Positions 6,014-41,700 of a DNA stretch of 42,945 bases are shown here, one piece after another. Position 1 is the stretch's first letter; the number at the start of each line of letters is the position of its first letter. Source of the DNA: a virus (taxonomy: Duplodnaviria > Caudoviricetes); the IMG/VR virus record IMGVR_UViG_3300020042_004234, positions 1 to 42,945 of that record, one strand, 5' to 3'. A program made the translations under genes and the position numbers. The notes under the pieces are model-generated. The model saw only the letters and a program-made list of their open reading frames with translations, was not told where the DNA came from and searched no databases.

Positions 6014-6160
6014 ATGAGTTCTTGGCTAATTATTCTTACTGGGCTAATTTACATATACATAGCTGCGGAACAATGCTTTAAAGGAAACATAGGCATGGCA
6101 ATTTGTTATGCGGGGTATGCTTTTGGAAACGTTGGTCTATATATAATGGCTACTAAATGA
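6014..6160 (+). CDS. 48-aa membrane protein (MSSWLIILTGLIYIYIAAEQ...)
   Basis: AAGGA RBS; two hydrophobic segments; hand-translated; ATGA coupling to next ORF. Confidence 0.7.
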   Translation: MSSWLIILTGLIYIYIAAEQCFKGNIGMAICYAGYAFGNVGLYIMATK

Positions 6161-6312
6161 TTGAGTCTTTAGTTAAACCCACCCCACTAGATAACGATGT
6201 TGCTGTTATAAAAATACTGCAGTTGATGGGTCAGTTAAGCCCTAAAGATATTGGGCACGTTTTAGCCATAGCAAATCAAGTATATAAAGTTGTTGCCAAA
6301 GAAACCGCATGA
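6157..6312 (+). CDS. 51-aa hypothetical protein
   Basis: ATGA overlaps at both ends; hand-translated. Confidence 0.6.
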   Translation: MIESLVKPTPLDNDVAVIKILQLMGQLSPKDIGHVLAIANQVYKVVAKETA

Positions 6313-6440
6313 GTTTTACGATATACCAAGCAAACGGTATGAAGGTTATTCAATGGTTTAGTACGATTGATAGCCTGATTCAAAGTATGATTAAAAACCC
6401 TAAAGATAGGTACCACAGAAATGACGACAATCGTTGGTGA
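6309..6440 (+). CDS. 43-aa hypothetical protein
   Basis: ATGA coupling; hand-translated. Confidence 0.5.
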   Translation: MSFTIYQANGMKVIQWFSTIDSLIQSMIKNPKDRYHRNDDNRW

Positions 6441-6852
6441 CTGGGGCAAGAAAATTCTTGTAGCGGATAGTCAGTTTACTGACACCGATTCGGGCATTAA
6501 ATATTTTGAAGACAAGATATTTCCGATAGAAGGTGGGTGGATGGGCATAGCAGGTAACTACTGTGATGCCGAAAAGGTTTTAGACTACCTAAGCAAAAAG
6601 AACAAAACAAAACCTAAACTTAAATCCAACAGTTCTTTTATCAAGCTAACTAAAGACGGGCTGTTTTCCTGCGGGGACGATTTAGAGTGGGAACGGGTGC
6701 GAACTTTTATGGCTATTGGCTCTGGGGCTATGGCGGCTGAAGTCTGTATGCGTATGGGTTTAACGGCAGAAGAGGCCGTTAAGTGGGCTTGTAACGTAGA
6801 CATTAATAGTAGCGAGCCAGTCAAAACTTATAAGCTAGACGATGCCCTATAA
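6421..6852 (+). CDS. Ntn-hydrolase, proteasome beta-subunit/HslV-like threonine peptidase
   Basis: N-terminal M-T-T-I, ADSQ, conserved K (DKIF), GIAG, AIGSG, late A...D..S. Confidence 0.8.
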   Translation: MTTIVGDWGKKILVADSQFTDTDSGIKYFEDKIFPIEGGWMGIAGNYCDAEKVLDYLSKKNKTKPKLKSNSSFIKLTKDGLFSCGDDLEWERVRTFMAIGSGAMAAEVCMRMGLTAEEAVKWACNVDINSSEPVKTYKLDDAL

Positions 6853-7195
6853 AGACCCAAAAGTTAAAAAGGCGTATAACAAAATTCAAAGCCGTAAGCA
6901 TTACGAGGCAAACCGAAAAGCGCTAATACAAAAAGCAGCCGATAAAAAGAAAATATTTAAAACAGAGTGGAAAAAATATAAAGCTACTCTAGCCTGTACC
7001 AAATGCGGGTTTGCCCATTCAGCAGCATTAGACTTTCACCATGAAGACCCAACAAAAAAAGAAGCAAACATCCATCGTTTGTTGTCAAATGGGCAATACG
7101 TCAAACTACAAAAAGAATTAAAAAAGTGTATCGTATTGTGTGCAAACTGCCATCGAATACACCATTGGCAAGAAAAGAAAAACCCCGCTTTATGA
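6842..7195 (+). CDS. HNH endonuclease with Zn-binding cysteines
   Basis: CTKCG..LDFHH.DP..KCIVLCANCHRIHH. Confidence 0.85.
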   Translation: MPYKDPKVKKAYNKIQSRKHYEANRKALIQKAADKKKIFKTEWKKYKATLACTKCGFAHSAALDFHHEDPTKKEANIHRLLSNGQYVKLQKELKKCIVLCANCHRIHHWQEKKNPAL

Positions 7196-7202
7196 GCGGG
7201 GT
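7172..7202 (-). terminator. intrinsic terminator after major capsid gene
   Basis: ACCCCGCT-5nt-AGCGGGGT stem followed by U-rich tract on the minus strand. Confidence 0.75.
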
Positions 7203-7223
7203 CAAAACACTATAGTGTGTTTA

Positions 7224-8138
7224 TTAAGCGCCGGGTGAACCAAACATTCCGAGTGGATCAGACCAACCAAACGAATAACGCTCACGAGACTTGTAACGTA
7301 CGTTACCAGTATCAAAGTCGCCGTCCATGTTGTTAGCCAAAGGCATACGCTCAAAGTGCTTCATGCCGTTAGGTACGTCAGTTGTCAAGAACCAAGCATT
7401 TGTGTCGGTCAAGTAGTGGTTAATTGCGTAACCTTCTGGGATTGAACCGTTGTTCTTCAATGCGTTGATGTCGTTGTCAGTTGTACCTACGCGCAAGTTA
7501 GTTTCCAACAAGCGGGTTGCAACGAATTGCAGTGCTGGTGGGATGATTAACTTACGTGGCATTGCGGCAATTAACAGACCACGCTCGTCAGTCCAAGCAG
7601 CGATTTGAATAACAGCGTTTTCCAACGAAGTTTCATTCAAGTCAGCGCCAGTTGTAGGACGGTTGCTGTTAGTGCCACCAGAAACTAAAGGATGCGCTGT
7701 TGAGAACAGTGGAACGCCATCGCCGCCGTAGTACTGGGCAGAGTTGGTGAAGCCGTTGTTCAATACAGAAGCAGCTTTAACTTGCTTGGTGTATGCCATT
7801 GCACGAGCTAATGCTTTGGTATAACGAGCAGACAGTGAGTCATACAAGTTATCTTCGATTGCTTCTTCAGTAACTGAGAAGCCCAAAGCAATTGTTTCGT
7901 GGTTGTAACGTGCTGTAAATGCCTCTTGTGCATTGTCATAAGCGATGGCAGAACCTTCGTTTTTGACTGGTGCAGCAGAGAAGCCGGACAGCTTGGTTTC
8001 TTCTTCAAAACTACGTTCTGATTTCTCAGTTTCGTAGATCTCTTTGTGCTCTTCGCCGTAACGCTTGTACTCTAAACCGAACAATGCGTTCAAACCGGGG
8101 AGCAACTCTTTCAGTAGTTGTGCGCGTGAAATAGCCAT
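7224..8138 (-). CDS. major capsid protein (HK97 fold, Mu gpT-like family)
   Basis: MAISRAQLLKELLPGLNALFG start; ARYTKALAR.M; DFDTGNVRYK.RERYSFGWSDP; AGGAG RBS; followed by terminator. Confidence 0.9.
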   Translation of the reverse strand: MAISRAQLLKELLPGLNALFGLEYKRYGEEHKEIYETEKSERSFEEETKLSGFSAAPVKNEGSAIAYDNAQEAFTARYNHETIALGFSVTEEAIEDNLYDSLSARYTKALARAMAYTKQVKAASVLNNGFTNSAQYYGGDGVPLFSTAHPLVSGGTNSNRPTTGADLNETSLENAVIQIAAWTDERGLLIAAMPRKLIIPPALQFVATRLLETNLRVGTTDNDINALKNNGSIPEGYAINHYLTDTNAWFLTTDVPNGMKHFERMPLANNMDGDFDTGNVRYKSRERYSFGWSDPLGMFGSPGA

Positions 8139-10222: not shown

Positions 10223-10651
10223 TTATACGCGGGTAATGCCGCGTGGGTCTTCAACAGTTGCTTCAACCTGATCATCATTAATCAAGCGAAACTCTTTTCC
10301 GTGAATTTTTAGACGGGTTCCTGTATACGGGCGGGTAATAACGAAGTCGCCTTCTTTACACCATGCACCTTCTGGGAATTTTTCCGCATCATAGGCGCTA
10401 GGCCCCAGTTTTATAACAAACAGCACTGGTGAGGTCAATTCCTCAATTTCTTTGGTTTTATCTGCCTTAACAATCCCACTATCAAATGCGTCGTCAGGGT
10501 CGATTAATGCACAGAGCAAACGCCAACCTTTAGGGTCGGGTAGCGCCTTTGCCTTATCTTCTGCTGCTTCGTACTCTTGATCCACTTCTGGGGCTTTAAC
10601 GCCCGGCGGCAGGACTAATTCCGTTTCTGGTAACGCGATGGTTTCACTCAT
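10223..10651 (-). CDS. groES: GroES-like co-chaperonin
   Basis: P.GWRLL, SGI mobile loop, VIKLG, WCKEGDFV..YTGT..GKEFRLINDD.V.A. Confidence 0.85.
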   Translation of the reverse strand: MSETIALPETELVLPPGVKAPEVDQEYEAAEDKAKALPDPKGWRLLCALIDPDDAFDSGIVKADKTKEIEELTSPVLFVIKLGPSAYDAEKFPEGAWCKEGDFVITRPYTGTRLKIHGKEFRLINDDQVEATVEDPRGITRV

Positions 10652-10850
10652 CGTTGTCTTTCTCTATATTTTCAGCGAGGTCAATTAAATGGCGCTCTGC
10701 ATAGGCTAGACCTCGAATCACCCCGCAAAGTTCTTTGTACTGCTCAAAGGACGCGCACTGACCATTTGCCAAATCGTCAGTAAAGTTGTTCATATCTGCA
10801 CGAAATTTATCGCGTAATACCTGTAATACATTCATCGTTGATACATCCAT
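10644..10850 (-). CDS. small helical hypothetical protein
   Basis: FEQYKELCGVIRGL motif; between portal and GroES. Confidence 0.7.
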   Translation of the reverse strand: MDVSTMNVLQVLRDKFRADMNNFTDDLANGQCASFEQYKELCGVIRGLAYAERHLIDLAENIEKDNDE

Positions 10851-13312: not shown

Positions 13313-14884
13313 CTAGTAATATGCCGCACGTCTGCGGTATTTGTAAGTTAAATCTTCTTGTTCATCAGTTTCAAGGCTAATAAAGCCCCCCTGCCTGTAA
13401 CGCAGTAGCGCCTGTGTGCAAGTATCCACGAAGTCATCGTGTTCGCCAACTGGGAAACTAGCAATTTCTTCAATTACTTCTCTTGCCCAACGTGTGTCTG
13501 GTGCCCATACTTTACCAGATGTAAACAGATCCGCTACAGCGTTTAAACGAACCATTTTGTCGTTGCCGCGTGAGGGTGAAAATTCCTGCACCGGAATACC
13601 GATGAGGCGAAGTTCTTGAATTAACGGGGCACCCGCCGCCTTTTTCTCCACAATAAACGCATCTGGTGTCCACTCTTTGTAATGCTTAAGGGCTATCTGT
13701 TTGAGTTCCGGGAAGGTCATGCGGTCTTTAAATGCGTCAAGCAGAATGATGTTGGGGCTGCGTTTATCCTCGTTATCGTAGAAAACACCCCATGTTGTGC
13801 ACGCAGAATAGTCACTGTTGTTTTTTGTTTCAAACGCCGTATCCCAAGACTGAATCAAATACTCACACTTGGGCGGATCGTCTGCTTCCCATATTTTCCA
13901 ATCCTTTCGCCCTACCAGTGCGCTCATGTCACTAGTCGGATTCTGCATGTACTGGGCATTCCAGTACCGTGGGTCTATGGAATTCTGGGTGTTTTTTAAC
14001 GCTTCAAGGCTCCACTGCGCAGGCCAAAGCGATTTTTCATCATCTGTACCAGCGTTAACTATGGCGGGCAGTTCTACGATTTCCCAAGGTATGGTCTCTG
14101 GGTTTTTTATCTGATAGTCAATTAAACGCCCTGTTAAATCTAACAACGACCACCTAGTCATGATTACTATGATTGCACCGCCAGGCATTAAACGTTGCAA
14201 GGGACCCGTTTGAAACCAAGACCAAGCGTTATCAAACGCCAGCCTTGAGTTTGCTTTCATATCTTGTTCAGAATGTGGGTCGTCAATAACAAATAAATCT
14301 GCTCCGCGACCAGCCAAAGCCCCGCCAACACCAGCTGCGTAATACTGACCACCAGCACCAGTACTCCATTTCCCAGCCGCTTTCTGGTCGTCTGCGACGA
14401 CGGTATTTGGAAAGATTTCACGGTATTCCTCACTATCTATTAGGTTTCGCACCCGTCGTCCAAAGTCCTCAGACAAACTTGCCGTATGGGTACCCATGAT
14501 AATTTTCTTATGTGGGAAGTTACCTAAAAAATAAGCAGGAAATAAGTAAGAGCTGAACTCCGACTTACCCATACGAGGTGCAATGTTGATAATGACCCGC
14601 TTTTTCTTACCATCGACTACGTCTTGAAAGATTTTAGCTAAGCGTTTGTGGTGCGGGCCTACTTTAAACCCAGGATATATGCGTTTTGCAAACTCTATCG
14701 GGTTAGTTTTAGAGGTGTGTACCTCAAACCTGTGTTCTTTTTTCTCAAGATCGGCTAAAAATGCCAGTTTCTCGACCTTGTCCATGTCTTTTAGCGCTTT
14801 TTGCGCCGCCATTGCTTCTTCTGGGGTAAAAAAATCTAGATTCATGTATACGTTTTTGGGGTTTTTATGTACATCTATGTTCAT
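13313..14884 (-). CDS. terL: terminase large subunit
   Basis: Walker A APRMGKS, GRGADLFVIDDP, YMQNP, nuclease SWDTA, VEKKAAG, HDDFVD. Confidence 0.95.
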   Translation of the reverse strand: MNIDVHKNPKNVYMNLDFFTPEEAMAAQKALKDMDKVEKLAFLADLEKKEHRFEVHTSKTNPIEFAKRIYPGFKVGPHHKRLAKIFQDVVDGKKKRVIINIAPRMGKSEFSSYLFPAYFLGNFPHKKIIMGTHTASLSEDFGRRVRNLIDSEEYREIFPNTVVADDQKAAGKWSTGAGGQYYAAGVGGALAGRGADLFVIDDPHSEQDMKANSRLAFDNAWSWFQTGPLQRLMPGGAIIVIMTRWSLLDLTGRLIDYQIKNPETIPWEIVELPAIVNAGTDDEKSLWPAQWSLEALKNTQNSIDPRYWNAQYMQNPTSDMSALVGRKDWKIWEADDPPKCEYLIQSWDTAFETKNNSDYSACTTWGVFYDNEDKRSPNIILLDAFKDRMTFPELKQIALKHYKEWTPDAFIVEKKAAGAPLIQELRLIGIPVQEFSPSRGNDKMVRLNAVADLFTSGKVWAPDTRWAREVIEEIASFPVGEHDDFVDTCTQALLRYRQGGFISLETDEQEDLTYKYRRRAAYY

Positions 14885-15474
14885 GTGTCGATTTTTTCGT
14901 CTTTTGTATACACGTCTTCTACATCGACCACATCTACCGCACCCATGTACCTACCCAGCTTCTCTTTTATGCGTGCATCCAATTCCTCATCACTAACATC
15001 CTCACTTTTGACCGCTATGCGGTCAGTGAAAAGGGCGACTTCTGTAACCTTGCCTAGCATTTCTAGTGCTTTTAATCTTATTCTTGCATCTGGGTGGCTA
15101 ACTTCTTTGACAATATGGGTTACTGCCATGCTTCGTAACTCTTCTGCTTGCTCAATAAACTTCCACTGGTACGCAGTCACCATGCCTACGGCTGTCTTTA
15201 TCTCTTCTGGTAAGTCTAGCTCGAGTAATTTTTGTTTTGCGTTGGGGTCTCTGGTTGTCAACGCATTGAAGGCGTCAACCGTTTTTTCTTCTTGGGCTTC
15301 GGTTAGTGTAGCTTCGTCATCGTCTTGAAAAGCCTCTAGCCATTTACTGGTTTTGTGCTGTGCGCTAAGTGTTTGCGCTGGGGTGAGGTCTTCTAGGGGG
15401 TCAAAGGTTTCGCCAGAGAAGGTGTCTGGTATATAGTCTGCTGCGGACGCTGTGACTAAGTGTTCTAAAAACAA
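14881..15474 (-). CDS. putative terminase small subunit
   Basis: directly upstream of terL; helical RLKALEMLGK motif; TTG start after purine-rich RBS. Confidence 0.55.
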   Translation of the reverse strand: MFLEHLVTASAADYIPDTFSGETFDPLEDLTPAQTLSAQHKTSKWLEAFQDDDEATLTEAQEEKTVDAFNALTTRDPNAKQKLLELDLPEEIKTAVGMVTAYQWKFIEQAEELRSMAVTHIVKEVSHPDARIRLKALEMLGKVTEVALFTDRIAVKSEDVSDEELDARIKEKLGRYMGAVDVVDVEDVYTKDEKIDT

Positions 15475-15546
15475 CTGCTCTTCCCCTTTGGTTGCGTGTG
15501 GTGATCACGTATGGCTGGAGTATATATTGTTTTTCAGTTTTTTGTG

Positions 15547-15552
15547 TATAAT
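15547..15552 (+). promoter_or_regulatory. -10 box TATAAT for putative small RNA
   Basis: consensus TATAAT 7 nt before first hairpin; no clear -35. Confidence 0.5.
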
Positions 15553-15558
15553 TTGTTT

Positions 15559-15647
15559 ACCGTAGCTTTTCCTCCTTCGTTTGGGCTATGGTTGATGTTA
15601 GTACATCCTCGTTTAAACCCCCACCTAAGACGTGGGGGTTTTTTTTT
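15559..15647 (+). ncRNA. putative small RNA with anti-Shine-Dalgarno loop
   Basis: hairpin ACCGTAGC/GCTATGGT with loop TTTTCCTCCTTCGTTTGG, second hairpin GATGT/ACATC, then terminator. Confidence 0.55.
15615..15647 (+). terminator. intrinsic terminator (possibly bidirectional)
   Basis: AAACCCCCAC-7nt-GTGGGGGTTT plus T run. Confidence 0.8.
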
Positions 15648-15648
15648 A

Positions 15649-15771
15649 TTACTTGGTGAACTGCTTGATGCTTGAGACAAAAGCGTTAATCCAAAACTCG
15701 TTTACTTCTTTGATGCGCTCTGCCAACTGTTCGAACTGCTTGGTTTGTTTAGTGAAATCGAAATAATTCAT
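15649..15771 (-). CDS. 40-aa amphipathic helical peptide (phasin-like, inferred)
   Basis: MNYFDFTKQTKQFEQLAERIKEVNEFWINAFVSSIKQFTK; TAAGGA RBS; own TATAAT upstream. Confidence 0.65.
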   Translation of the reverse strand: MNYFDFTKQTKQFEQLAERIKEVNEFWINAFVSSIKQFTK

Positions 15772-16077: not shown

Positions 16078-16110
16078 GAGCCAAGCCTAACCGCTTGGCT
16101 CTTTTCGTTT
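16078..16110 (+). terminator. terminator/attenuator-like hairpin in early leader
   Basis: GAGCCAAGC-6nt-GCTTGGCTC followed by TTTTCGTTT. Confidence 0.5.
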
Positions 16111-16129
16111 GAGGACAAGTTGTCCTCAA
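16109..16129. repeat. 21-bp palindrome copy 1 (TTGAGGACAAGTTGTCCTCAA)
   Basis: perfect dyad with 1-nt centre. Confidence 0.9.
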
Positions 16130-16152: not shown

Positions 16153-16578
16153 ATGAACGCAACAATCGTTAACAACTACTTCGCTTCTCTTGAGGCGTTA
16201 CTTAAAGCTGGTACGGATTATGCCAAGGCTGTCAAGGCATTGATACCCGAATGGAGAAAGGCAAGTCCTGAGGAACGAAATGTGATACGCAATCGTGTTG
16301 CAGAAGTCATTGGTAAGAAGTATGGGGTCAAGCCTAAGCTGATGGAGAAAGGTTCTAGCAAGGGCTTGCTAGGGTTTGATCAGCATGGTAGTACAGCCGA
16401 GTCGAGTGCTAGGGCTTTTATGCGTAACAACTTCAAGGTCACGCCTACCAAGAAGAAAGGTTCTACGCCCAAGGTTCGTGCCAAGGTTGATCCTGTTGAG
16501 CAAGCTCTTGAGTTGGTTGAGTCATTGAGTAAGGCTCAGCAAGACAAGTTCTTCAGTCGTGTTAGTCGTAAGAAGTAA
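16153..16578 (+). CDS. first early gene, basic hypothetical protein
   Basis: AGGAG RBS at 16141 before ATG 16153. Confidence 0.75.
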   Translation: MNATIVNNYFASLEALLKAGTDYAKAVKALIPEWRKASPEERNVIRNRVAEVIGKKYGVKPKLMEKGSSKGLLGFDQHGSTAESSARAFMRNNFKVTPTKKKGSTPKVRAKVDPVEQALELVESLSKAQQDKFFSRVSRKK

Positions 16579-16979: not shown

Positions 16980-17131
16980 CCAAGCAACAATGCGTATTAC
17001 TCAAGGCTCAGGCTAAGCAACAAGTTGAGGACAAGCCGTCCTCAAAACCCAAAGAAGTAGAGGTAGAAGTATCCATGCAGTCAGCGTTCAATCAGTTCAG
17101 TCTTACCATTTACAAACAACATAAGGAGTAA
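16973..17131 (+). CDS. 52-aa hypothetical protein
   Basis: AGGAG RBS; hand-translated. Confidence 0.6.
   Translation: MLTKQQCVLLKAQAKQQVEDKPSSKPKEVEVEVSMQSAFNQFSLTIYKQHKE
17025..17045. repeat. 21-bp palindrome copy 2 (TTGAGGACAAGCCGTCCTCAA)
   Basis: 19/21 match to copy 1. Confidence 0.9.
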
Positions 17132-17728: not shown

Positions 17729-18346
17729 ATGCCTTCGCATCTTCGGTCATCACTTATTGAGGACAAATTGTCCTTAAAACTTTGTGCATCATGCAACGAA
17801 ACCAAACCCAAAAAGGAATTCCACCGAGTGCTAACACTTGCACAAAGCAAAGCATTACTCAAGAAACCGAACCTCAAGACAAGGCACACATTGTACAGTT
17901 CGTTGTGCAATACCTGTAGAAGAATCAAAAAAAGACGCACACCGCTATCCATCAAAGAGCTACGCAACAAGATCACAACAGGCGACATGAACCCCGTCAT
18001 AGGCGAAGCCCTGATACAAGAAAAGCGAAAGGCTATCCCAAAAGCAAGAGCACGAGTCATGAAAGAGTATTGGCAAAAGAAACGATTGGGCTGGCAAAGC
18101 GAACTCAAAGCCAACCTCCAAAAGCAAGTCACACGCTATGCCTCACGCTACTACTCATACCAAAACCATATGCCCGAACAGGCAACACCAGCACAACACG
18201 CCATGCTAGATCAACATAGGTACAACTACGCAGAGGCGAAACGAATAAGACAAGACCTGATAGACCGAGTCAAAGCAGGCGAAGTAGTAGAAGTGTGTAT
18301 ACAAATCAACGAGTTAATCAAACGAAGAAAGGTAGGTGCGGTATGA
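17729..18346 (+). CDS. basic protein with CxxC...CxxC zinc finger
   Basis: AGGAG RBS before ATG 17729; CASC..K...EF..CNTC. Confidence 0.7.
   Translation: MPSHLRSSLIEDKLSLKLCASCNETKPKKEFHRVLTLAQSKALLKKPNLKTRHTLYSSLCNTCRRIKKRRTPLSIKELRNKITTGDMNPVIGEALIQEKRKAIPKARARVMKEYWQKKRLGWQSELKANLQKQVTRYASRYYSYQNHMPEQATPAQHAMLDQHRYNYAEAKRIRQDLIDRVKAGEVVEVCIQINELIKRRKVGAV
17757..17777. repeat. 21-bp palindrome copy 3 (TTGAGGACAAATTGTCCTTAA)
   Basis: 19/21 match to copy 1. Confidence 0.9.
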
Positions 18347-18630: not shown

Positions 18631-18747
18631 ATGTATAAGTCTTGTTTTAGGTGTGGTAAGCAGGGCGTTAGTCGTTGCCATGCGTGTTCTAGGTATGAGA
18701 AGGCAAAGAAGTTACATGAAACGGAGAGAATTCTCTCCAACAAGTAG
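18631..18747 (+). CDS. 38-aa Cys4 zinc-finger peptide
   Basis: GGGAG RBS; CFRC...CHAC. Confidence 0.55.
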   Translation: MYKSCFRCGKQGVSRCHACSRYEKAKKLHETERILSNK

Positions 18748-19738: not shown

Positions 19739-20275
19739 ATGACAACATTCACATTGCAAGACCTTAACTTACCAGCAACAGCAGAGCAAGCAGTCGCAAT
19801 AACCAAGGACGAGATGTTTAAAACCATGGCAGAGATGAGCAGAGAACCCCAACACGCCCCCGTACCACAACCTACCTTGACTGACATCATCAACAACATC
19901 TGTACCCAACTACAGCTTCTATCTTCGGTCATCAGCCAAGCTAAAGCCCAACCCGTTGAGGACACGTTGTCCTCAAGCGCACCACTTCAAGAAACAGTCG
20001 CATTGGTATTACAACAGGCTGAGTGGTTCAAAGAAACAGTTGAGGAAAAGGTTGAAACGCTTGTTGATGACATGGATCACACCTATGAGATCGAGTCAGC
20101 CGTTGAAACATATTTCAGCAACTCGTTCAGTCTTGATGACCATGTGGACATCACCGCAGAGGTAGAGAGCAAGGTCGAGGAGATTGCCGAGGACTTGCTA
20201 AAAGACATAGTGCAAGAGCAGTTAGAGGAAGTCGTTGCAGAGAAGTTGAAGAACCTACGTATTACTTTTGATTAA
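19739..20275 (+). CDS. acidic helical hypothetical protein
   Basis: TAAGGAG RBS; D/E-rich C-terminal half. Confidence 0.75.
   Translation: MTTFTLQDLNLPATAEQAVAITKDEMFKTMAEMSREPQHAPVPQPTLTDIINNICTQLQLLSSVISQAKAQPVEDTLSSSAPLQETVALVLQQAEWFKETVEEKVETLVDDMDHTYEIESAVETYFSNSFSLDDHVDITAEVESKVEEIAEDLLKDIVQEQLEEVVAEKLKNLRITFD
19956..19976. repeat. 21-bp palindrome copy 4 (TTGAGGACACGTTGTCCTCAA)
   Basis: 20/21 match to copy 1. Confidence 0.9.
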
Positions 20276-20461: not shown

Positions 20462-21081
20462 GCAAAGTAATTGAGGTAGAGGTTTACAAGTATGGCGAGC
20501 TATCCGAGTCAGCCCAACAGAAAGCTCGTGAGTGGATGGCTATTGAAGATGGCAAAGAGAAAGGCTTTTACATCGACAAGATTTACTTCTCAGGCTTTCA
20601 CTCACAAGGTGATGGCGCTAGCTGGATAGGTCAGGTTGATGTACGGCAATGGCTTGAGGAGAACTTGCCTGACTCGATAGGCTTATCGGCATGGTGTCAG
20701 CTTATCCAAGAAGGTGTCGTATCTATGCACGTCAAGGTCGAGGCTAACAACACGCACTACTGCCATGAAAGCACGATGCAGTTTGGTGAGGTGCTAGACG
20801 ATACCGATGTCTTTGAAGATGACTACACCATGCAAAAAGAATCAATCTTCAAGGGCATGGAGATACAGCACCTATTTGACATCATTGAGAGCGACGACAA
20901 CTGCCCTATCAAAAGCACCGAGGGTATAGAGCAAGCCATTGTAGAGAGTGGCAAGCAGTATGCCAAAGATATTTACCACCGACTGAGAGAGGAGTACGAC
21001 TACCTATGTAGCGACGAGATGATGCTTGACCACTTTGATGCAAACGATTACCACTTTACTAACGAAGGGAGATTGGCATGA
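20458..21081 (+). CDS. conserved acidic phage/mobile-element protein (FSGFxSQGDGA motif)
   Basis: VYKYGELSE.AQQKA, FSGFHSQGDGAS, EYDYL.SDE; GGAGG RBS. Confidence 0.75.
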   Translation: MSKVIEVEVYKYGELSESAQQKAREWMAIEDGKEKGFYIDKIYFSGFHSQGDGASWIGQVDVRQWLEENLPDSIGLSAWCQLIQEGVVSMHVKVEANNTHYCHESTMQFGEVLDDTDVFEDDYTMQKESIFKGMEIQHLFDIIESDDNCPIKSTEGIEQAIVESGKQYAKDIYHRLREEYDYLCSDEMMLDHFDANDYHFTNEGRLA

Positions 21082-21236
21082 CAACGATACAACTAACACT
21101 AAACGAAGATGACATACAGGCACTTGAAAGGATAGCCCGTCAGTCTTGGAACGACCCCGACATGATAGCGATAGCAACACACATTCTCGAGCAAGTTAAT
21201 TTAAAACAAGGAGCAATAGCATGTACATACCAGTAA
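21078..21236 (+). CDS. 52-aa hypothetical protein
   Basis: GGGAG RBS; ATGA coupling. Confidence 0.5.
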   Translation: MTTIQLTLNEDDIQALERIARQSWNDPDMIAIATHILEQVNLKQGAIACTYQ

Positions 21237-22239: not shown

Positions 22240-22273
22240 TTCTAAAAAGTAGTACTAATCAAACGAGGACAAT

Positions 22274-23389
22274 ATGAAATTACTTAATTCGCTACAAGTA
22301 GCAAACGCTATCAAGATGGTTGGTCACAAGCGCACCATCATTGTTCAAGGTGAGAATGGTATCGGCAAGACTGGTATCTTCCACACCCTTGAGCGTGACC
22401 CACACTTTGCCAATCACGTTGCGGTCAAGCTCGACTGTACTCAGATGTCTGATGGTTCTGTGTGGATGCCTGACATTGATCGTGATGCAGGTGTATCTCG
22501 TGAGTTACCCAACGAGCGCTTCGGTGTAAGCAAAGCTAATCAGAAGGGTATCAATGGTGCTCGTCCATCGCTTGTGTTCCTTGACGAGTTGGCTAAGGCT
22601 AAGCAGTACATCAAGGACGTGCTTGCTCCGATTGTGTACGAGCGTGCTGTTGGTAACTACGAGATGGCTGAGGGTTCTGTCGTGTTCGCTGGTACTAACC
22701 TTGCGGTCGAGGGCTTGGGCGATTCGATACAGGCTCACTTGCGTAATCGTCTTGTGTTCTTGACCATGCGTAAGCCTACGCAACCCGAGTGGTATACATG
22801 GGGTGTCGACAACGGCATCGACCCTATTCTCTTAGCATGTACCAACGAGAATCCACAATGGTTCGATAGCTTCCTTGACTTCCAAGATGGCGGTAAGTAT
22901 GCAGGTCGTGATCAGTCTAAGGAGAATGACGTTATCTTCAATCCGTTGTTATCTCAGCAGGCGTACATCACACCACGCTCACTACACTCTGCGTCAGACA
23001 TTGTCAAAGAGCGTGAGTACATGGATACCGATACGTTGCAGGGTCTACTCGAGGGTACGATCGGTCGTGCTGGTGCTGAGGTATTGGGTGCGTTCATTCG
23101 CTTTGGTGATGAGACACCTGCGTTCAGTAAGATCGTGTCGTCCCCAAGCACTTGCCCTATCCCTACCAATCCTGTGGCGCAGATCATTACTGTGCTCAAG
23201 TGTGTCACGCAAACTTCCACTAGAGAAGAAGCCGAGGCATGCACCGAGTATGTGATGCGCAATCGTCGTGAGTTGCAGTCTATGTTCGCTAACAACATTG
23301 CCAACTCTACACGTGCGGCGTTGTTCGTCACAGTCAAGCCGTTCCAAGCATTGATGAATGACAACAAGATTTATTTCTCAACCAAGTAA
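22274..23389 (+). CDS. MoxR-like AAA+ ATPase
   Basis: Walker A GENGIGKT, Walker B LVFLDE, sensor AGTN, arginine finger LRNR, TPRS. Confidence 0.85.
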   Translation: MKLLNSLQVANAIKMVGHKRTIIVQGENGIGKTGIFHTLERDPHFANHVAVKLDCTQMSDGSVWMPDIDRDAGVSRELPNERFGVSKANQKGINGARPSLVFLDELAKAKQYIKDVLAPIVYERAVGNYEMAEGSVVFAGTNLAVEGLGDSIQAHLRNRLVFLTMRKPTQPEWYTWGVDNGIDPILLACTNENPQWFDSFLDFQDGGKYAGRDQSKENDVIFNPLLSQQAYITPRSLHSASDIVKEREYMDTDTLQGLLEGTIGRAGAEVLGAFIRFGDETPAFSKIVSSPSTCPIPTNPVAQIITVLKCVTQTSTREEAEACTEYVMRNRRELQSMFANNIANSTRAALFVTVKPFQALMNDNKIYFSTK

Positions 23390-23398
23390 GGGGGATGT

Positions 23399-23563
23399 AT
23401 GAAAAAGTGGTCAGGCTACGCCATTAGGAAAGAGTACTTCAAGGTTGAAGTAGAAGCCGACACGTGGGAAGAAGCACGAGAGAAGGCGTGGGACTCTGAA
23501 GTTACTGACGAACCAATTGATATTATTTGGGAAATTTACGATATAGAGGAGGTACTAGCATGA
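23399..23563 (+). CDS. 54-aa acidic protein (VEVEA.T.EEA.EKA pattern)
   Basis: GGGGG RBS; ATGA coupling; hand-translated. Confidence 0.6.
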   Translation: MKKWSGYAIRKEYFKVEVEADTWEEAREKAWDSEVTDEPIDIIWEIYDIEEVLA

Positions 23564-25267: not shown

Positions 25268-25297
25268 TTAAACCAACCAAACGAGGAGAAGTAAATC

Positions 25298-26170
25298 ATG
25301 ACACGCTATAACATTGATACATGCGCATTACTAGTAGAACTCAATGTATCCCAATGGACTGCACGCAAGCTAGATCGCTCGACTACTGACGAGTTGGTTA
25401 GTAACAAGCATGCACAGGCTAAGGGTGCGGCTCGGGTTAACAAGAACCTGTTCGCAGGGCGCAGTGAGTTAGAAGTAGTAGGTCAGCACGTTACAGAAAC
25501 ACGTAGCTATGTGTATGACAATACGTTACCTTGGAGTGATTCGGGTATACGACTATTGCCAAGTGCTAAGTTTATGGAATTTAATAGCAAGCTACAACAA
25601 GCAGAGGATAAGTTTCATGGGCTGGTTACTGAGTTCGTTACTGTATACCCATCGCTTATCACAGCGCAAGCTATGGCACTAGGTGATATGTTCAACCGCA
25701 ACGACTACCCACAACCCAACGACATTGAGCATCGGTTCAACTTCAACGTCAACTACATGCCTGTACCTGCATCGGGTGACTTTCGTGTAGATATTGGTAA
25801 TGATGCGCAAGAAGAACTGCGCAAGAAGTTGTCAAGCCTAGCCGATGAGCGTGTTGAGTATGCGATGAAGGACATCAAGACACGACTGATGGAGCACTTG
25901 AAGCGTATGTCTGACCGCCTGTCTGTTGACTATGTTAGTGGTGAGGCTAAGCCTCGCAAGTTCCACGACTCGTTGCTAGAAGGTGCGCATGACTTGTGTG
26001 ACTTGGCAGATAGCTTAAACATTGTGGGTGATGTACAGCTAAGCGATGCACGCAAGGCGTTAAAGAAAGCCATCGGCGGTATTGATGTGAAAGACTTACG
26101 CAAGGATGTGGGCGCACGTACCGATGTCAAGACGCAAGTCGATGACATCTTATCTAAGTTTAATTTCTAA
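25298..26170 (+). CDS. conserved helical phage protein (DUF3150-like)
   Basis: LVELNVSQWTARKLD, TLPW.D.G.RLLP, FN..DYP; GAGGAG RBS. Confidence 0.7.
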   Translation: MTRYNIDTCALLVELNVSQWTARKLDRSTTDELVSNKHAQAKGAARVNKNLFAGRSELEVVGQHVTETRSYVYDNTLPWSDSGIRLLPSAKFMEFNSKLQQAEDKFHGLVTEFVTVYPSLITAQAMALGDMFNRNDYPQPNDIEHRFNFNVNYMPVPASGDFRVDIGNDAQEELRKKLSSLADERVEYAMKDIKTRLMEHLKRMSDRLSVDYVSGEAKPRKFHDSLLEGAHDLCDLADSLNIVGDVQLSDARKALKKAIGGIDVKDLRKDVGARTDVKTQVDDILSKFNF

Positions 26171-28053: not shown

Positions 28054-28364
28054 GAAAGGTGAGCATACGAACAGTTGAAAATACTATTGGGTTGGCACGT
28101 AGTGTTGCTAATGGAACAACCAAATTTCCGTTTATGGGTTATTGCGCAGACCTGATGGAAAAGATGTTAGAAGAGATTAAAAAAGCAAGAAAGGCCCCTG
28201 ACTTTATTCCACTCTACACCCATCCAGCAAAGACATTAACAGATAAAGAAATGAAAGACCTTATCCAAGAATATTGGGGTGATGTGCATATTGTTGACCC
28301 TGATGGCTTTTTGCATGAAATTGCATTTATAAAAGCAATACTAAAAAAGGCACAAGAGAAATGA
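28050..28364 (+). CDS. hypothetical protein with PLYTHP..LTD.E module
   Basis: coupled ORF. Confidence 0.6.
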   Translation: MRKVSIRTVENTIGLARSVANGTTKFPFMGYCADLMEKMLEEIKKARKAPDFIPLYTHPAKTLTDKEMKDLIQEYWGDVHIVDPDGFLHEIAFIKAILKKAQEK

Positions 28365-33567: not shown

Positions 33568-33978
33568 ATGCCAAACGAAGAGGATGTAATACCGCTAGAT
33601 AAACTAGCAAGGGTGTATCGCAAGATATACTCAAAAGTTCAAGAGCTGACCAAGGAGTACGAGAGTCAGATCGAAGAACTCAAAGTGAAGCAAGACGAAA
33701 TTAAGAACGCCATGAAAGATCAAATGTTGGCATTGGGCAGTAGCTCGGTGCGCACAGATGAAGGCACTATTATTTTGTCACAAAAGACACGCTACTACAC
33801 AGACGATTGGGATTCATTCAAGACGTTTGTCATGGAGCATGATGCACTAGACCTATTCGAAAAGCGTATAGCGCAGAAAAATATGTCTATGTTTTTAGAG
33901 GAGAACCCCGGCATGGTGCCAGCCGGTCTCAATTCGATGTCCGAGTATGCAGTAACTGTACGTAAACCAACCAAATAA
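33568..33978 (+). CDS. conserved coiled-coil phage protein upstream of SSB
   Basis: AAGGAG RBS before ATG 33568; DWDSF..FV..LFEKRI..P.GLN. Confidence 0.7.
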   Translation: MPNEEDVIPLDKLARVYRKIYSKVQELTKEYESQIEELKVKQDEIKNAMKDQMLALGSSSVRTDEGTIILSQKTRYYTDDWDSFKTFVMEHDALDLFEKRIAQKNMSMFLEENPGMVPAGLNSMSEYAVTVRKPTK

Positions 33979-38790: not shown

Positions 38791-41700
38791 AAAATTCTTT
38801 AGCTAGCTGTATCTTATCTTGGCGAATGGCGTCTAGTTCAGCACGTTTCTCTGCGCCATTTAACGAACCATCAGCCCTAACATTGCGTTCTGCTCTAGTT
38901 AAGTCACCCATTTTTTTACGGAAAGAGCCTGCCATAGTACCCATACCAAGCATGTCGGCGTTAGCAGTTACATAATCTTCGGCTTCTTTCTCACGACCTT
39001 CTTCTATCATCTTGTCGTACGTTTCCTTAGTCTGAACAATTTCGTTCATATCTTTGTAGGCTTTGTTAATTAGCCCACCAGCATCTTTAGGTTGAAAGAA
39101 CGAACCAATCAACGGGGTTTCGCTACTTAACATACCACGGCTCTCAGGCTGTTCACCTGCCTCAGAAGAACGCAAGATTGGATTAGACAACGAAACAATG
39201 GCTAACGGCAAGCTACCTGTATAGCCACGGACCAAATACTCAAGTTTAACAGGCGAAATATTAAACGTGGCACCAATCATCTTAGCAATCTCAGAAGTGC
39301 GCTCGGTGTAACGCTCGCCCGGCTCGTATTGTTGTAATCTAGCGGATTCAATATCACGCCATGTAAAGAACGAATGGTTGATAGCCACTTCAAGCAACGG
39401 TTTAATACCCTGTGGACCGCTGATTGGAATAGAATTCCATGCCATTTTACCGATTGCAGATACAGCATCACGGGCTTTTTCGTCGCCAAACATAGTGTTG
39501 ACAAGCGCTTCCGGTATAGCTTTAAACAGTAGCCCAACTTCAAATGGAATAGGTACTTTGATGTACTCATCGCCAAACGGATTTGGAAAAAACCAGTTGC
39601 CATACTTCTCGTCATCATTAGCGTTCTGATAAGACTCGTCGTCCTGCATCATAGATGCGTACAACATGGTAAATCCAGCCATCATAATGGCCCGTTGCAC
39701 TAGCTTCTGTTTAACTTTTAACTTCTCATTAAACGGCATCTTGCCTGTAAACGCTTGGTATATTACGTTTAGACCTTGGATCTGTGCGTTCATAAACGGC
39801 ACCATTGTAGACAGTGCAAACAAGCTAGGCGAGATACCACGTTTACTAAAGTTCATAGACTCAAGCGTAGCCAAGGTAGCTTCCATTTCAGACAGCCCTT
39901 GTTTAATAAAGTTGTTGTACATTACAACACGCGTTGCAGCATCACCTTGGATAGCCAGTTGGTCTAGCTGAGCCATGCGGTATTCCCAACCTTTTTTACC
40001 AGCCGTAACATCACGGAGAATCTTGGTCATATCTTCAGAAGTGCCAGTTAATACCTGACCGCCCAAAATACCTCGACGTTGGAGAAGAGGCTCACCCTCA
40101 CTCTTGCCACGAATCATCTTGCTAATTTCTTTAAACGAGCTAACGATTGGAACTGTATCTAAACCAGTAGTAAATACGGCGTTTAATGGGTCACGAACTA
40201 CCTGACGTAGCGCATACGCTGGGTTTCTTGTTACCCACTTGCGCAGTAAGTTAGCCGGTATATTCATCAGCTTGACTGCGTTTGGCAACGAAGTGTTAAC
40301 GCCCTCCATGCCCTTAATCAACAACTCAGCAGGAATATCAAGAGATTTAGTGTTTACTGTAGCCCAGTAATTTTCGCCATCAATTTTAAAACGAAGAGTG
40401 TCAACGCCTTTTGGACCATCGCCCTTGTGCAAACCAACACCTTTTTCTTTCTCGCCTACTTTAAGTAGCCCCATATCGCCCAAAGCAAACGCCGTATTGC
40501 GAGTTGCTAGGTTGCGTAAAGCCATATCGGTAAGCATAGCGGTGTTCTGTAACGCACTGGTATACACATCATAGATCGGTTTATCGCCACCAACTAACTC
40601 ATGCAAGTACGGCTGGTCAGCCAAGTTACCAATCTTAATAGCGGGCGCACCGCCAATCTCAAGGAACACAGACCCGTCAGAACGTTGACGATAAAACGGA
40701 ACATAATCGCCGTCTTTAGTTAGTTGCGCACCAATATCTTTAGGAATAGCGCCTGTCTTAACCGCAAAGTTGATTAAACCTTTGTTGTATTCAGCATAAA
40801 TGCCTGCGGCTTTTTCAAAGGCGGCTTTAGTTGACGGGCTACCATTAACAGCTTTCATGGTGTCGTCAAGCATTTTCTGTGTAAGATCAGGTCCAAAGTT
40901 TAACTTAGCAAGACCTATTTTTGGGTTAGCGGCACGCTTAGCGGCTAAATACATGGTAAAAATACGAGAAGTTGCTTCTGCATTACCTACGTCAGCATCT
41001 TTAAGAGCGGCTGCCATATCTTTTAAGTTAGCGCCCGGCTCGCTTTCAATAATAAGACCTTTGCCGTCTTTAGCAGGTTTTAAATCTAGCGGACCATTAG
41101 ACGCCACTTCAGAAGTAAAAGACATACGTTGGTCGTGCATGCGCAAGAAATACATTAGCTGAGTTGCTTTTAAAGAGTCTTTCATCTGATTGGCAACGGC
41201 TTGTATAGGCGCAAAGCGGTCAATGTACTTGGTCTTAAATATTAAACCAGTAGCTTCGCCTTTGATCTTGTTAACAAACGACTTCTCTTTAGCAACAATC
41301 TTGTCAGAATAATCAAGCACGTTCTCAAAACCAGCATTAGCTACGGCTGGTTTAACGCTAAATAAAATGTCGCCGTTTTTATTTACGTAGGCACCGGGCG
41401 AACCCTCATTAAATTGCTTGCGTGCGTCGCGCAGTAACTTGTAGATGTCAGACGTACTAATATCTAAATCCACACCACGCTTACGTAGCGCAGCACGGAC
41501 AGCGCCTACCAAAGCCTTAATAAACGCCTTGGCTGTTTCCAGCATGTTTCTAGTAGGTCTTGTTTCTTCAACGTGCGCAATCAATTCACGTACGGCATTC
41601 AGTACGCTATCTTCTTCAGACTTGGTGCGGCGAGCATTAGCGTAGGCGGCTAACACATCGTCAAGTACTCCAAGCTTTTCAGCTAAATCAAAAACACTGT

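Follow-up and report, generated by a model that had tools for sequence, protein, structure and literature searches.

Amongst a large group of uncultured phages we identified, next to the DNA-packaging genes, a conserved gene for a predicted small RNA (sRNA) that likely pairs over the ribosome-binding sites (RBSs) of early genes bearing a matching sequence tag, and that would thus repress these genes together. This reading is drawn from sequence comparison: the anatomy of the predicted gene, its place back-to-back with the putative terminase small subunit gene (terS), covariation within its stem, conservation of its seed, and a covariation between seed and RBS that is seen in early genes only.

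The stretch of DNA that was analysed, referred to here as the window, is a 42,945-nucleotide (43-kb) phage fragment that is 66% complete. Its minus strand carries a late arm with the putative TerS gene (14881-15474), TerL (13313-14884), the portal and the capsid (7224-8138), and its plus strand carries an early/replication arm that begins at 16153 and comprises genes for an AAA ATPase (22274-23389; phrog_1297), DUF2201/VWA and DUF3150 (25298-26170) proteins, DNA polymerase, helicase and primase. The ATPase has been called MoxR, a label that we take to be borrowed from its VWA/DUF2201 neighbour. TerS, the constant neighbour of the sRNA, was assigned by its position before TerL; the protein of the window has no PHROG match and none in Pfam over the cut-off. 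Within the late arm, a pair of genes encoding an HslV-family peptidase and an HNH protein (6142-7195, +) lies on the opposite strand with its own TATAAT and converges on the capsid terminator (7175-7221).

Cultured relatives of the capsid, at 56-73%, include HTVC023P, CRP-901/902, DSL-LC04 and Pag-Yong1, and relatives of the major capsid protein as a whole are 28-73% identical, with alpha-, beta- and gammaproteobacterial as well as cyanobacterial hosts. Judging by the related records, these phages may come from freshwater. No close cultured relative was found amongst 50,697 phage records, either by blastn with the region or by tblastn with TerS, and a simple motif scan of the divergent region of Pag-Yong1, the nearest cultured phage, found no such inverted RBS unit. 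Many early genes of Pag-Yong1 (L310, 29663-38841) carry CTGAACC some 20-30 nt before the start codon, which is another start-associated tag in a cultured relative. A role in lysogeny was considered and is without integrase support, as a search for the tyrosine integrase domain (PF00589) found none in five of five near-complete relatives, with no HTH_3 domain over the cut-off.

The predicted sRNA is 89 nt long (15559-15647, +), its 5' end being placed from the -10 box TATAAT at 15547-15552. The earlier note on this DNA, made from the letters alone, had described this box, a hairpin, a second small hairpin and a terminator, and each was found where the note had put it. Hairpin 1 (15559-15592) has a 10-bp covarying stem and a loop (15569-15582) that is open and unpaired in the prediction and combines an anti-Shine-Dalgarno (anti-SD) core with a clade-specific extension; the note had reported this loop as an 18-mer, two closing G-U pairs of which belong to the stem, leaving 14 open nucleotides. 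Hairpin 2 (15594-15607) is small and variable amongst relatives, and the intrinsic terminator (15615-15647) consists of a stem at 15615-15641 followed by a U9 tail. The fold has a predicted energy of -32.2 kcal/mol (z -4.69), and 0 of 200 shuffled sequences were equally stable. On the minus strand, the AGGAGG at 15576 has no start codon in range, as had been observed before.

Three further features had been missing from the earlier account. First, a mostly unpaired second seed-like site, AUCCUCGUUU (complement AAACGAGGAU), spans 15605-15614 (+) and is a 9-nt perfect complement to the RBSs at 22261 and 25279; CCUCGUU is found at this site in 11 of 56 loci, and a UCCUU variant occupies it in most others. 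Second, a promoter-like site for the late arm (TACACA-18-TATACT, 15519-15548, -) stands back-to-back with the sRNA promoter and overlaps it. Third, a 40-aa open reading frame (ORF) converges on the sRNA (15649-15771, -), and the terminator stem of the sRNA lies, on the minus strand, directly after its stop. This ORF has a good RBS, a terminator in common with the sRNA, and no Pfam or PHROG match; some of its homologs carry the JGI label 'RNase H-like HicB family', and it may resemble a phasin fragment. It has 50 homologs; of 153 loci, only 12 have it within 800 nt of terS, which makes it an accessory and not a fixed part of the locus.

The arrangement of the two promoters recurs amongst relatives, which fall into nine clades (A to I) by their seeds. 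In these relatives a -10 box of the TATAAT, TATACT or TACACT type lies about 7 nt ahead of the first stem, without a good -35 in the window and with a best -35 match of only 1-3 of 6 positions across 29 distinct clade-A promoters. The divergent -10 of terS is 22 nt from that of the sRNA in the window, and the distance is 22-24 nt in clades C and E as well as at many promoters of clades A and D; in clades F-I it overlaps the sRNA -10 directly, forming a palindrome of the GTGTACAC/GTGTATAC type. This predicted arrangement ties the sRNA to the terS promoter, and both joint firing and mutual exclusion would be compatible with it. In loci L040 and L045, an insertion of about 40-60 nt has brought a TTTACA-17-TACAAT promoter to the same sRNA start. 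This canonical -35/-10 at the same start supports the proposed transcription from the sRNA -10 box. The insertion also uncouples the sRNA from the terS promoter.

To define the family, IMG/VR was searched for the exact 17-nt loop, which returned 35 loci; 30 of these have the same layout, divergent from a terS homolog and upstream of it, and the other five do not. A second set, gathered by TerS and thereby free of selection on the loop sequence, comprised 188 loci with a strong TerS match, 165 of which have at least 260 nt upstream. A -10 box, UCCU core and terminator, scored by a fixed rule, were present and divergent from the putative terS in 162 of the 165, a count that includes near-duplicates and corresponds to 89 distinct 5' ends; the exceptions failed the terminator rule (L105, L107) or the core rule (L238). 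In the window's own clade, the loop core UUCGUUU is found in all 56 TerS-found loci (L036-L096) while the stem swaps pairs, and the longer forms CUUCGUUU and CCUUCGUUUGG are retained in 53 and 50 of them, respectively.

Covariation was assessed in an alignment of 36 main-clade sequences (the window plus 12 obtained with the loop and 23 obtained with TerS), which was made from sequence only, leaves out near-duplicates and distant clades, and has some rows off register. Stem 1 has two-sided changes at all 7 counted pairs, and over both helices 78 cells have such changes versus 34 in shuffles. Stem covariation was 0.329 versus 0.149 when shuffled, a contrast that is inflated by relatedness, and did not exceed 0.123 in slid controls. 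The seed is single-copy and more conserved than its stem, and each related record yields a single strong match to model R1, which was built from the alignment. Conservation and stem covariation thus place the sRNA itself beyond chance: the predicted element is a real, conserved family adjoining the packaging genes, and it has the stand-alone non-coding unit, promoter, terminator and conserved structure of a putative trans-acting sRNA.

In the 15 loci viewed of the distant TerS relatives L166-L190 (27-37%), the element was not seen by eye. A search of GTDB for a bacterial homolog with a seed-plus-terminator pattern, which as an exact pattern misses diverged homologs, gave three matches; none of them is linked to terS, and the model scored them weakly at best. 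No Rfam family reached its gathering cut-off in 11 loci covering the clades. Literature searches returned no account of this RNA family; subscription journals and supplements lay outside their scope and may hold it unnamed.

Within the window, pairing was ranked over the start regions of all genes. The best predicted target is the RBS of the DUF3150 gene (25277-25288, +; start at 25298), which ranks 1st of 74 start regions with accessibility taken into account (-13.7 kcal/mol) and 1st of 63 in the second ranking; the earlier note had named this gene as DUF3150-like, and a PF11348 match over the cut-off bears that out. The note's two other targets fared less evenly. The ATPase gene (start at 22274) is 15th of 74 with accessibility, and its RBS (22261-22269, +), a 9-nt complement of the second site, is better fitted by that site and then ranks 3rd of 63; its orthologs track the seed, as described below. 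The RBS at 21061-21068 (+), with an 8-nt match, precedes a 52-aa ORF (21078-21236) and is a weak predicted target: it is 9th of 63, falls outside the top 25 of the accessibility ranking, lies partly within the coding end of the preceding gene and belongs to an ORF with no ortholog found in the set.

After DUF3150, the accessibility ranking continues with the VWA gene, 20458, 33568 and 24791. The possible VWA/DUF2201 target (23546-23563, +; 2nd of 74) covers RBS and start and pairs with hairpin 2 and the second site; it is not conserved, as the orthologs differ. That at 33571-33588 (+; 4th of 74) lies just after the start codon of a DUF7307-like gene (33568-33978), whose start is the same in records G001-G005 and not in G006-G009. 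In G008 (near 28130, -) and G009 (near 39828, +) there are genes that start M-P-N-E-G, where a 13-nt perfect complement of the loop follows the start codon directly; the gene at 33568 is similar.

On average, early genes of the window pair better than late ones (mean energy with accessibility -5.7 versus -3.8, p 0.007). The RBS strings that the earlier note had quoted were found at 25277, 22260 and 21061, and they do continue the match beyond the SD into AACGA as it had claimed, but AACGA occurs 82 times on the plus strand of the window, and when the 8-nt extension was permuted, 52 of 279 permutations paired as well with the top five early RBSs and 78 of 279 with the best one; for the best late RBS, 275 of 279 paired at least as well. 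As this result is unremarkable, those three matches cannot carry the claim alone. When early RBSs were pooled over clade A, only 2 of 279 permuted extensions did as well, compared with 149 of 279 for late RBSs. The target match is significant across relatives only, and not within the window genome by itself. The clade-A records G008 and G009 have an identical loop and gave no tblastn match for the ATPase, VWA and DUF3150 genes, and therefore the target would be a tagged, shifting set of early genes and not those three.

We then compared seeds with RBSs across the nine clades. Genes were called with our own simple RBS-weighted caller and arms were assigned by strand; distinct regions from -28 to -3 were kept, and the 7-mer complementary to each clade's seed was counted, with G and H left out of each other's background and L097 and nine unclassified loci left out of all. 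The anti-SD core (CCUU-type) is universal, and the bases after it differ by clade. The cognate word was found in early RBSs of its own clade versus those of other clades in 27/338 versus 4/563 cases for clade A, 3/18 versus 16/883 for B, 3/31 versus 11/870 for C, 3/46 versus 14/855 for D, 5/15 versus 6/886 for E, 21/260 versus 7/481 for G and 33/160 versus 4/481 for H, and it was absent from early RBSs of clade F (0/13), clade I (0/20) and locus L097 (0/16). Clade D is borderline (p 0.051). RBS-level p values are inflated by relatedness, and the clades are few, with some resting on one or two phages. Nor are the counts of tagged RBSs independent, because early RBS regions are partly near-repeats (G001, G004, G005).

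Ranked amongst 64 words, a clade's own word came first in five of the nine clades, outright in C, E and H, alongside AGAAAGG in A and with a tie in B; it took second place in D and G. In early RBSs of clade G, the H-type word (30) is more frequent than its own (21). Counting each gene family once left 19/95 in clade A versus 2/262 elsewhere, 13/67 in H, 10/82 in G and 5/14 in E. The words are also more frequent at RBSs than elsewhere on the strand in A (26/201 versus 14/722), H (32/93 versus 22/387), G (20/167 versus 20/611), E (5/9 versus 2/45) and B (3/14 versus 0/59), an enrichment that is not significant in C and D. Strand composition as the cause of the word enrichment was ruled out, the words being concentrated at RBSs.

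Late genes are largely spared. Cognate words were counted in 0/93 late-arm RBSs of clade G, 0/118 of H, 0/19 of E, 0/37 of C, 0/35 of D and 1/10 of B, and in the whole record G007 they mark 6/63 early and 0/44 late RBSs. An effect of the host 16S tail was rejected, as it would not spare late genes. Clade A has 8/184 in the late arm, all in one family of 68-aa genes after the portal, and because of these eight RBSs the comparison of early with late in this clade reaches only p 0.077 at RBS level. The 68-aa gene is the best late match in the window and may be deliberately tuned down; it lies at 10644-10850 (-), with orthologs for example at 2667-2873 in G021.

Pairing energies gave a similar picture. 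In a 9 x 9 matrix of hybrid energies, six of the nine clades were paired best by their own seed; in the other three it took second (I), third (G) and last (F) place. The permutation p was about 1e-4, becoming 0.0008 on removal of clade A and 0.0002 on removal of clade G, and the same test on late arms, leaving out three pseudo-ORFs formed by the antisense of the sRNA, gave p 0.67. Part of the seed extension lies within a predicted stem in clades C, G and H. Perfect matches of 13-16 nt are found at early RBSs of L064, L042, L050, L039, L063 and L096, and the bulged form AACGA(1-3)GG, with one A more or less, is common (40/338 clade-A early RBSs).

Individual gene families follow the seed as well. 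The RBS of the ATPase ortholog tracks it in five clades, reading as the complement of the clade's own seed AAACGAGGA or AAACGAAGGA in A, ACGAAAGG in B, ACCAAGGAAAT in C, TAAAGGAAAA in D and CACAAGGAGA in E; the ATPase RBSs of G006 and L157 have no fit. Contiguous pairing of at least 8 nt into the SD is present in 8 of 14 distinct rows, and four more achieve it with a 1-nt bulge. The seeds of clades G and H, which differ at one base, are interleaved on a quick version of the TerS tree (9 changes, at least 3 forced), and the opposite RBS base follows the seed in six gene families (14 versus 9.55 expected, one-sided p 0.004), with p 0.066 at the level of loci. At family level, then, the conserved seed covaries with several predicted trans targets, clades F and I and locus L097 excepted. 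Covariation between loop and target RBS in related phages was the test that the earlier note had set for itself, and it is passed across clades by early and not by late genes. Its explanation in terms of a trans-acting sRNA that silences early genes is thus supported as a class, with a target list that was only partly right.

Several other repeats mark the early arm. A 21-bp palindrome of the TTGAGGACA-N3-TGTCCTCAA type is present in four copies (16109-16129, 17025-17045, 17757-17777 and 19956-19976), one just before the RBS of the first early gene and three inside ORFs; these look operator-like and recall the inverted repeats of extended start-associated sequences (SAS). An imperfect inverted repeat (17413-17480/17641-17709), with arms of about 68 nt and a 160-nt AT-rich spacer, could be an origin, an invertible segment or a structured RNA. 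A 16-bp perfect palindrome at 18723-18738 is also found ahead of tagged RBSs in the early arms of G001 and G005, and in relatives GGAGAGAATTCTCTC is followed by the clade-A tag, which is likely a repeated gene-boundary unit.

Some phages keep the seed with hardly any cognate RBSs of their own (0-1 exact ones each in G006, G008, G009, G024 and G025), which hints at further targets, and because the seed is invariant in clade-A phages with few own matches there is room for host targets. The element could be mainly a host-directed anti-SD regulator that damps host mRNAs to free ribosomes, with early phage RBSs secondary, although we consider this unlikely. Its architecture is like that of the CU-rich sRNAs of Burkholderia, the double-hairpin 'toxic' sRNAs RF02278 (ncS03/05/27/62) and anti-hemB/ncS04 (RF02837), which are described as 60-105 nt long, with hairpins, an intrinsic terminator and one or two CU-rich stretches that are unpaired and complementary to RBSs (PMC5688073); these are predicted to cover many RBSs, and overexpression of ncS27 slows growth (PMC5688073). 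Signals for both families fall below the gathering cut-off (RF02837 anti-hemB, 30.5 bits and E 0.0025 versus 49.5; RF02278 Betaproteobacteria toxic sRNA, 21.1 versus 50 bits), and the RF02278 search is weakly positive, again below cut-off, in 11 of 14 control genomes. The Burkholderia sRNAs, as described, are chromosomal host genes with predicted metabolic targets, whereas the predicted sRNA here is encoded by the phage, is linked to terS and matches genes of the phage itself. Host direction does not predict that early, and not late, RBSs track the seed clade by clade. Regulation of host mRNAs and of the phage's own early genes can both hold.

It is rather improbable that the same pairing serves superinfection exclusion or a quiescent carrier state, with the clade-specific seeds as immunity groups. 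Seed/tag pairs are indeed clade-specific, strong matches frequently include the first early gene, the promoter resembles the sigma-70 -10 of a host (with a fully canonical form in L040 and L045), and RNA-based exclusion is known for the cis-antisense RNAs STnc6030 and sas (PMC12197685). The five near-complete records without tyrosine integrase or HTH_3 weigh against such a role, as does the fixed coupling to the terS promoter region, which suggests a developmental one.

We give little credence to the view that seed and RBS are alike by descent or conversion, through inverted copies of clade-specific repeats that bear RBSs in the mosaic early arm, or through one clade-specific protein that binds both, with RNA pairing incidental. 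In favour of this view, early RBS regions of single phages (G001, G004, G005) are often near-repeats. However, the seed is a single inverted copy that is exposed, in an open loop or a linker, by a covarying structure with a promoter and a terminator of its own, it outlasts its stem in conservation, and the match has been renewed in at least six lineages; a protein site, for its part, need not be an exact reverse complement spanning the SD.

A cis element, be it a terS leader or decoy RBS, a bidirectional terminator or a type I antitoxin to the 40-aa ORF, is very improbable: the terminator directly follows the stop of that ORF and the minus strand has AGGAGG upstream of terS, but the plus strand bears the U-tail as well as the -10 box, which precedes the stem by 7 nt, the predicted terS promoter is downstream of the element on the minus strand, which places the element outside the terS leader, and the ORF, adjacent in only those 12 of 153 loci and overlapping at most at the terminator, is not hydrophobic. 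A terS leader was rejected on the position of that promoter, and a type I toxin-antitoxin pair for the want of a constant link to a small hydrophobic toxin ORF. A CsrB-like GGA sponge on the minus strand was rejected as well, the promoter and U-tail being on the plus strand.

Repression of tagged early genes by the sRNA would proceed as follows. The sRNA would be transcribed from its own -10 box and might be assisted by Hfq via its U-tail; a U9 tail fits the rule for Hfq-binding sRNAs. Its anti-SD core would provide affinity, and the 3-6 nt clade-specific extension selectivity for early over late RBSs. Occlusion of the SD by an sRNA is an established means of repressing translation, and here the seed would cover the SD of tagged early mRNAs and so repress theirs. 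In the weakest step of this scheme, the sRNA would accumulate as the late genes are transcribed from the divergent promoter region that it shares with them; its presence late is favoured because late RBSs are spared. Once accumulated, it may help the switch from early to late expression, as RegB does in T4.

Amongst known trans-acting phage RNAs, the C4 antisense RNA of P1 and P7 is one whose seed and target have changed together between relatives. C4 controls a single antirepressor operon in temperate phages, and the window has no Rfam match to it at E up to 1. VpdS of VP882, PreS of lambda and 24B_1 also act in trans, VpdS on phage and host mRNAs alike (PMC12197685), and SviR of PLE lowers the translation of phage targets (bioRxiv 10.1101/2022.04.08.487710). 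These four come from temperate phages or a satellite, and those accounts describe none that covers an RBS tag shared throughout its own early regulon and specific to one clade. T4 RegB inactivates early mRNAs at the SD and spares late ones, the bases flanking GGAG setting its selectivity (PMC3014915); unlike the predicted base-pairing RNA, it is a protein nuclease with S1 as cofactor. According to the same 2010 review, T4 had as yet no characterised regulatory RNA that acts in trans (PMC3014915).

The closest genomic parallel comes from the cluster K mycobacteriophages. Their SAS is an extended RBS word common to non-structural genes (Pope et al. 2011, PMC3203893), whose extra conserved bases cannot pair with 16S rRNA and whose binder, RNA or protein, that account left open (PMC3203893). 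Like SAS, the tag described here is an RBS word of non-structural, early genes, with one clade-A late-arm family as the exception, and it has a single inverted copy not tied to a start codon (one strong model match per record). SAS is reported as a tight 13-mer with 11-19 copies in temperate actinophages (PMC3203893), whereas the present tag is a looser, clade-variable 7-12-mer with about 0-6 exact copies per genome. A further difference is that here the inverted copy amounts to an entire predicted sRNA gene, whose seed covaries with the tag from clade to clade.

The role of non-coding RNA in lytic phages is still largely unexplained according to a 2024 review (PMC10884466), and the family offers a concrete predicted function. 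We propose, tentatively and at somewhat less than even confidence, that lytic phages can run the early-to-late switch by an RNA address code, in which lineage-specific tags sit by the SD and one sRNA from the terminase promoter region silences all genes that carry them. If so, tag and RNA would co-evolve, and the code would differ from one lineage to the next; it could also exclude related phages that superinfect. Such an RNA would do by base pairing what RegB does in T4, and would supply the reader that start-associated sequences, unexplained since 2011, have lacked; the SAS puzzle would become testable, with the inverted copy as a candidate sRNA. As natural compensatory changes are present in about six lineages, the alleles for a test already exist. 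More generally, an anti-SD core joined to a short variable address would explain how one RNA could select a class of genes amongst ordinary RBSs.
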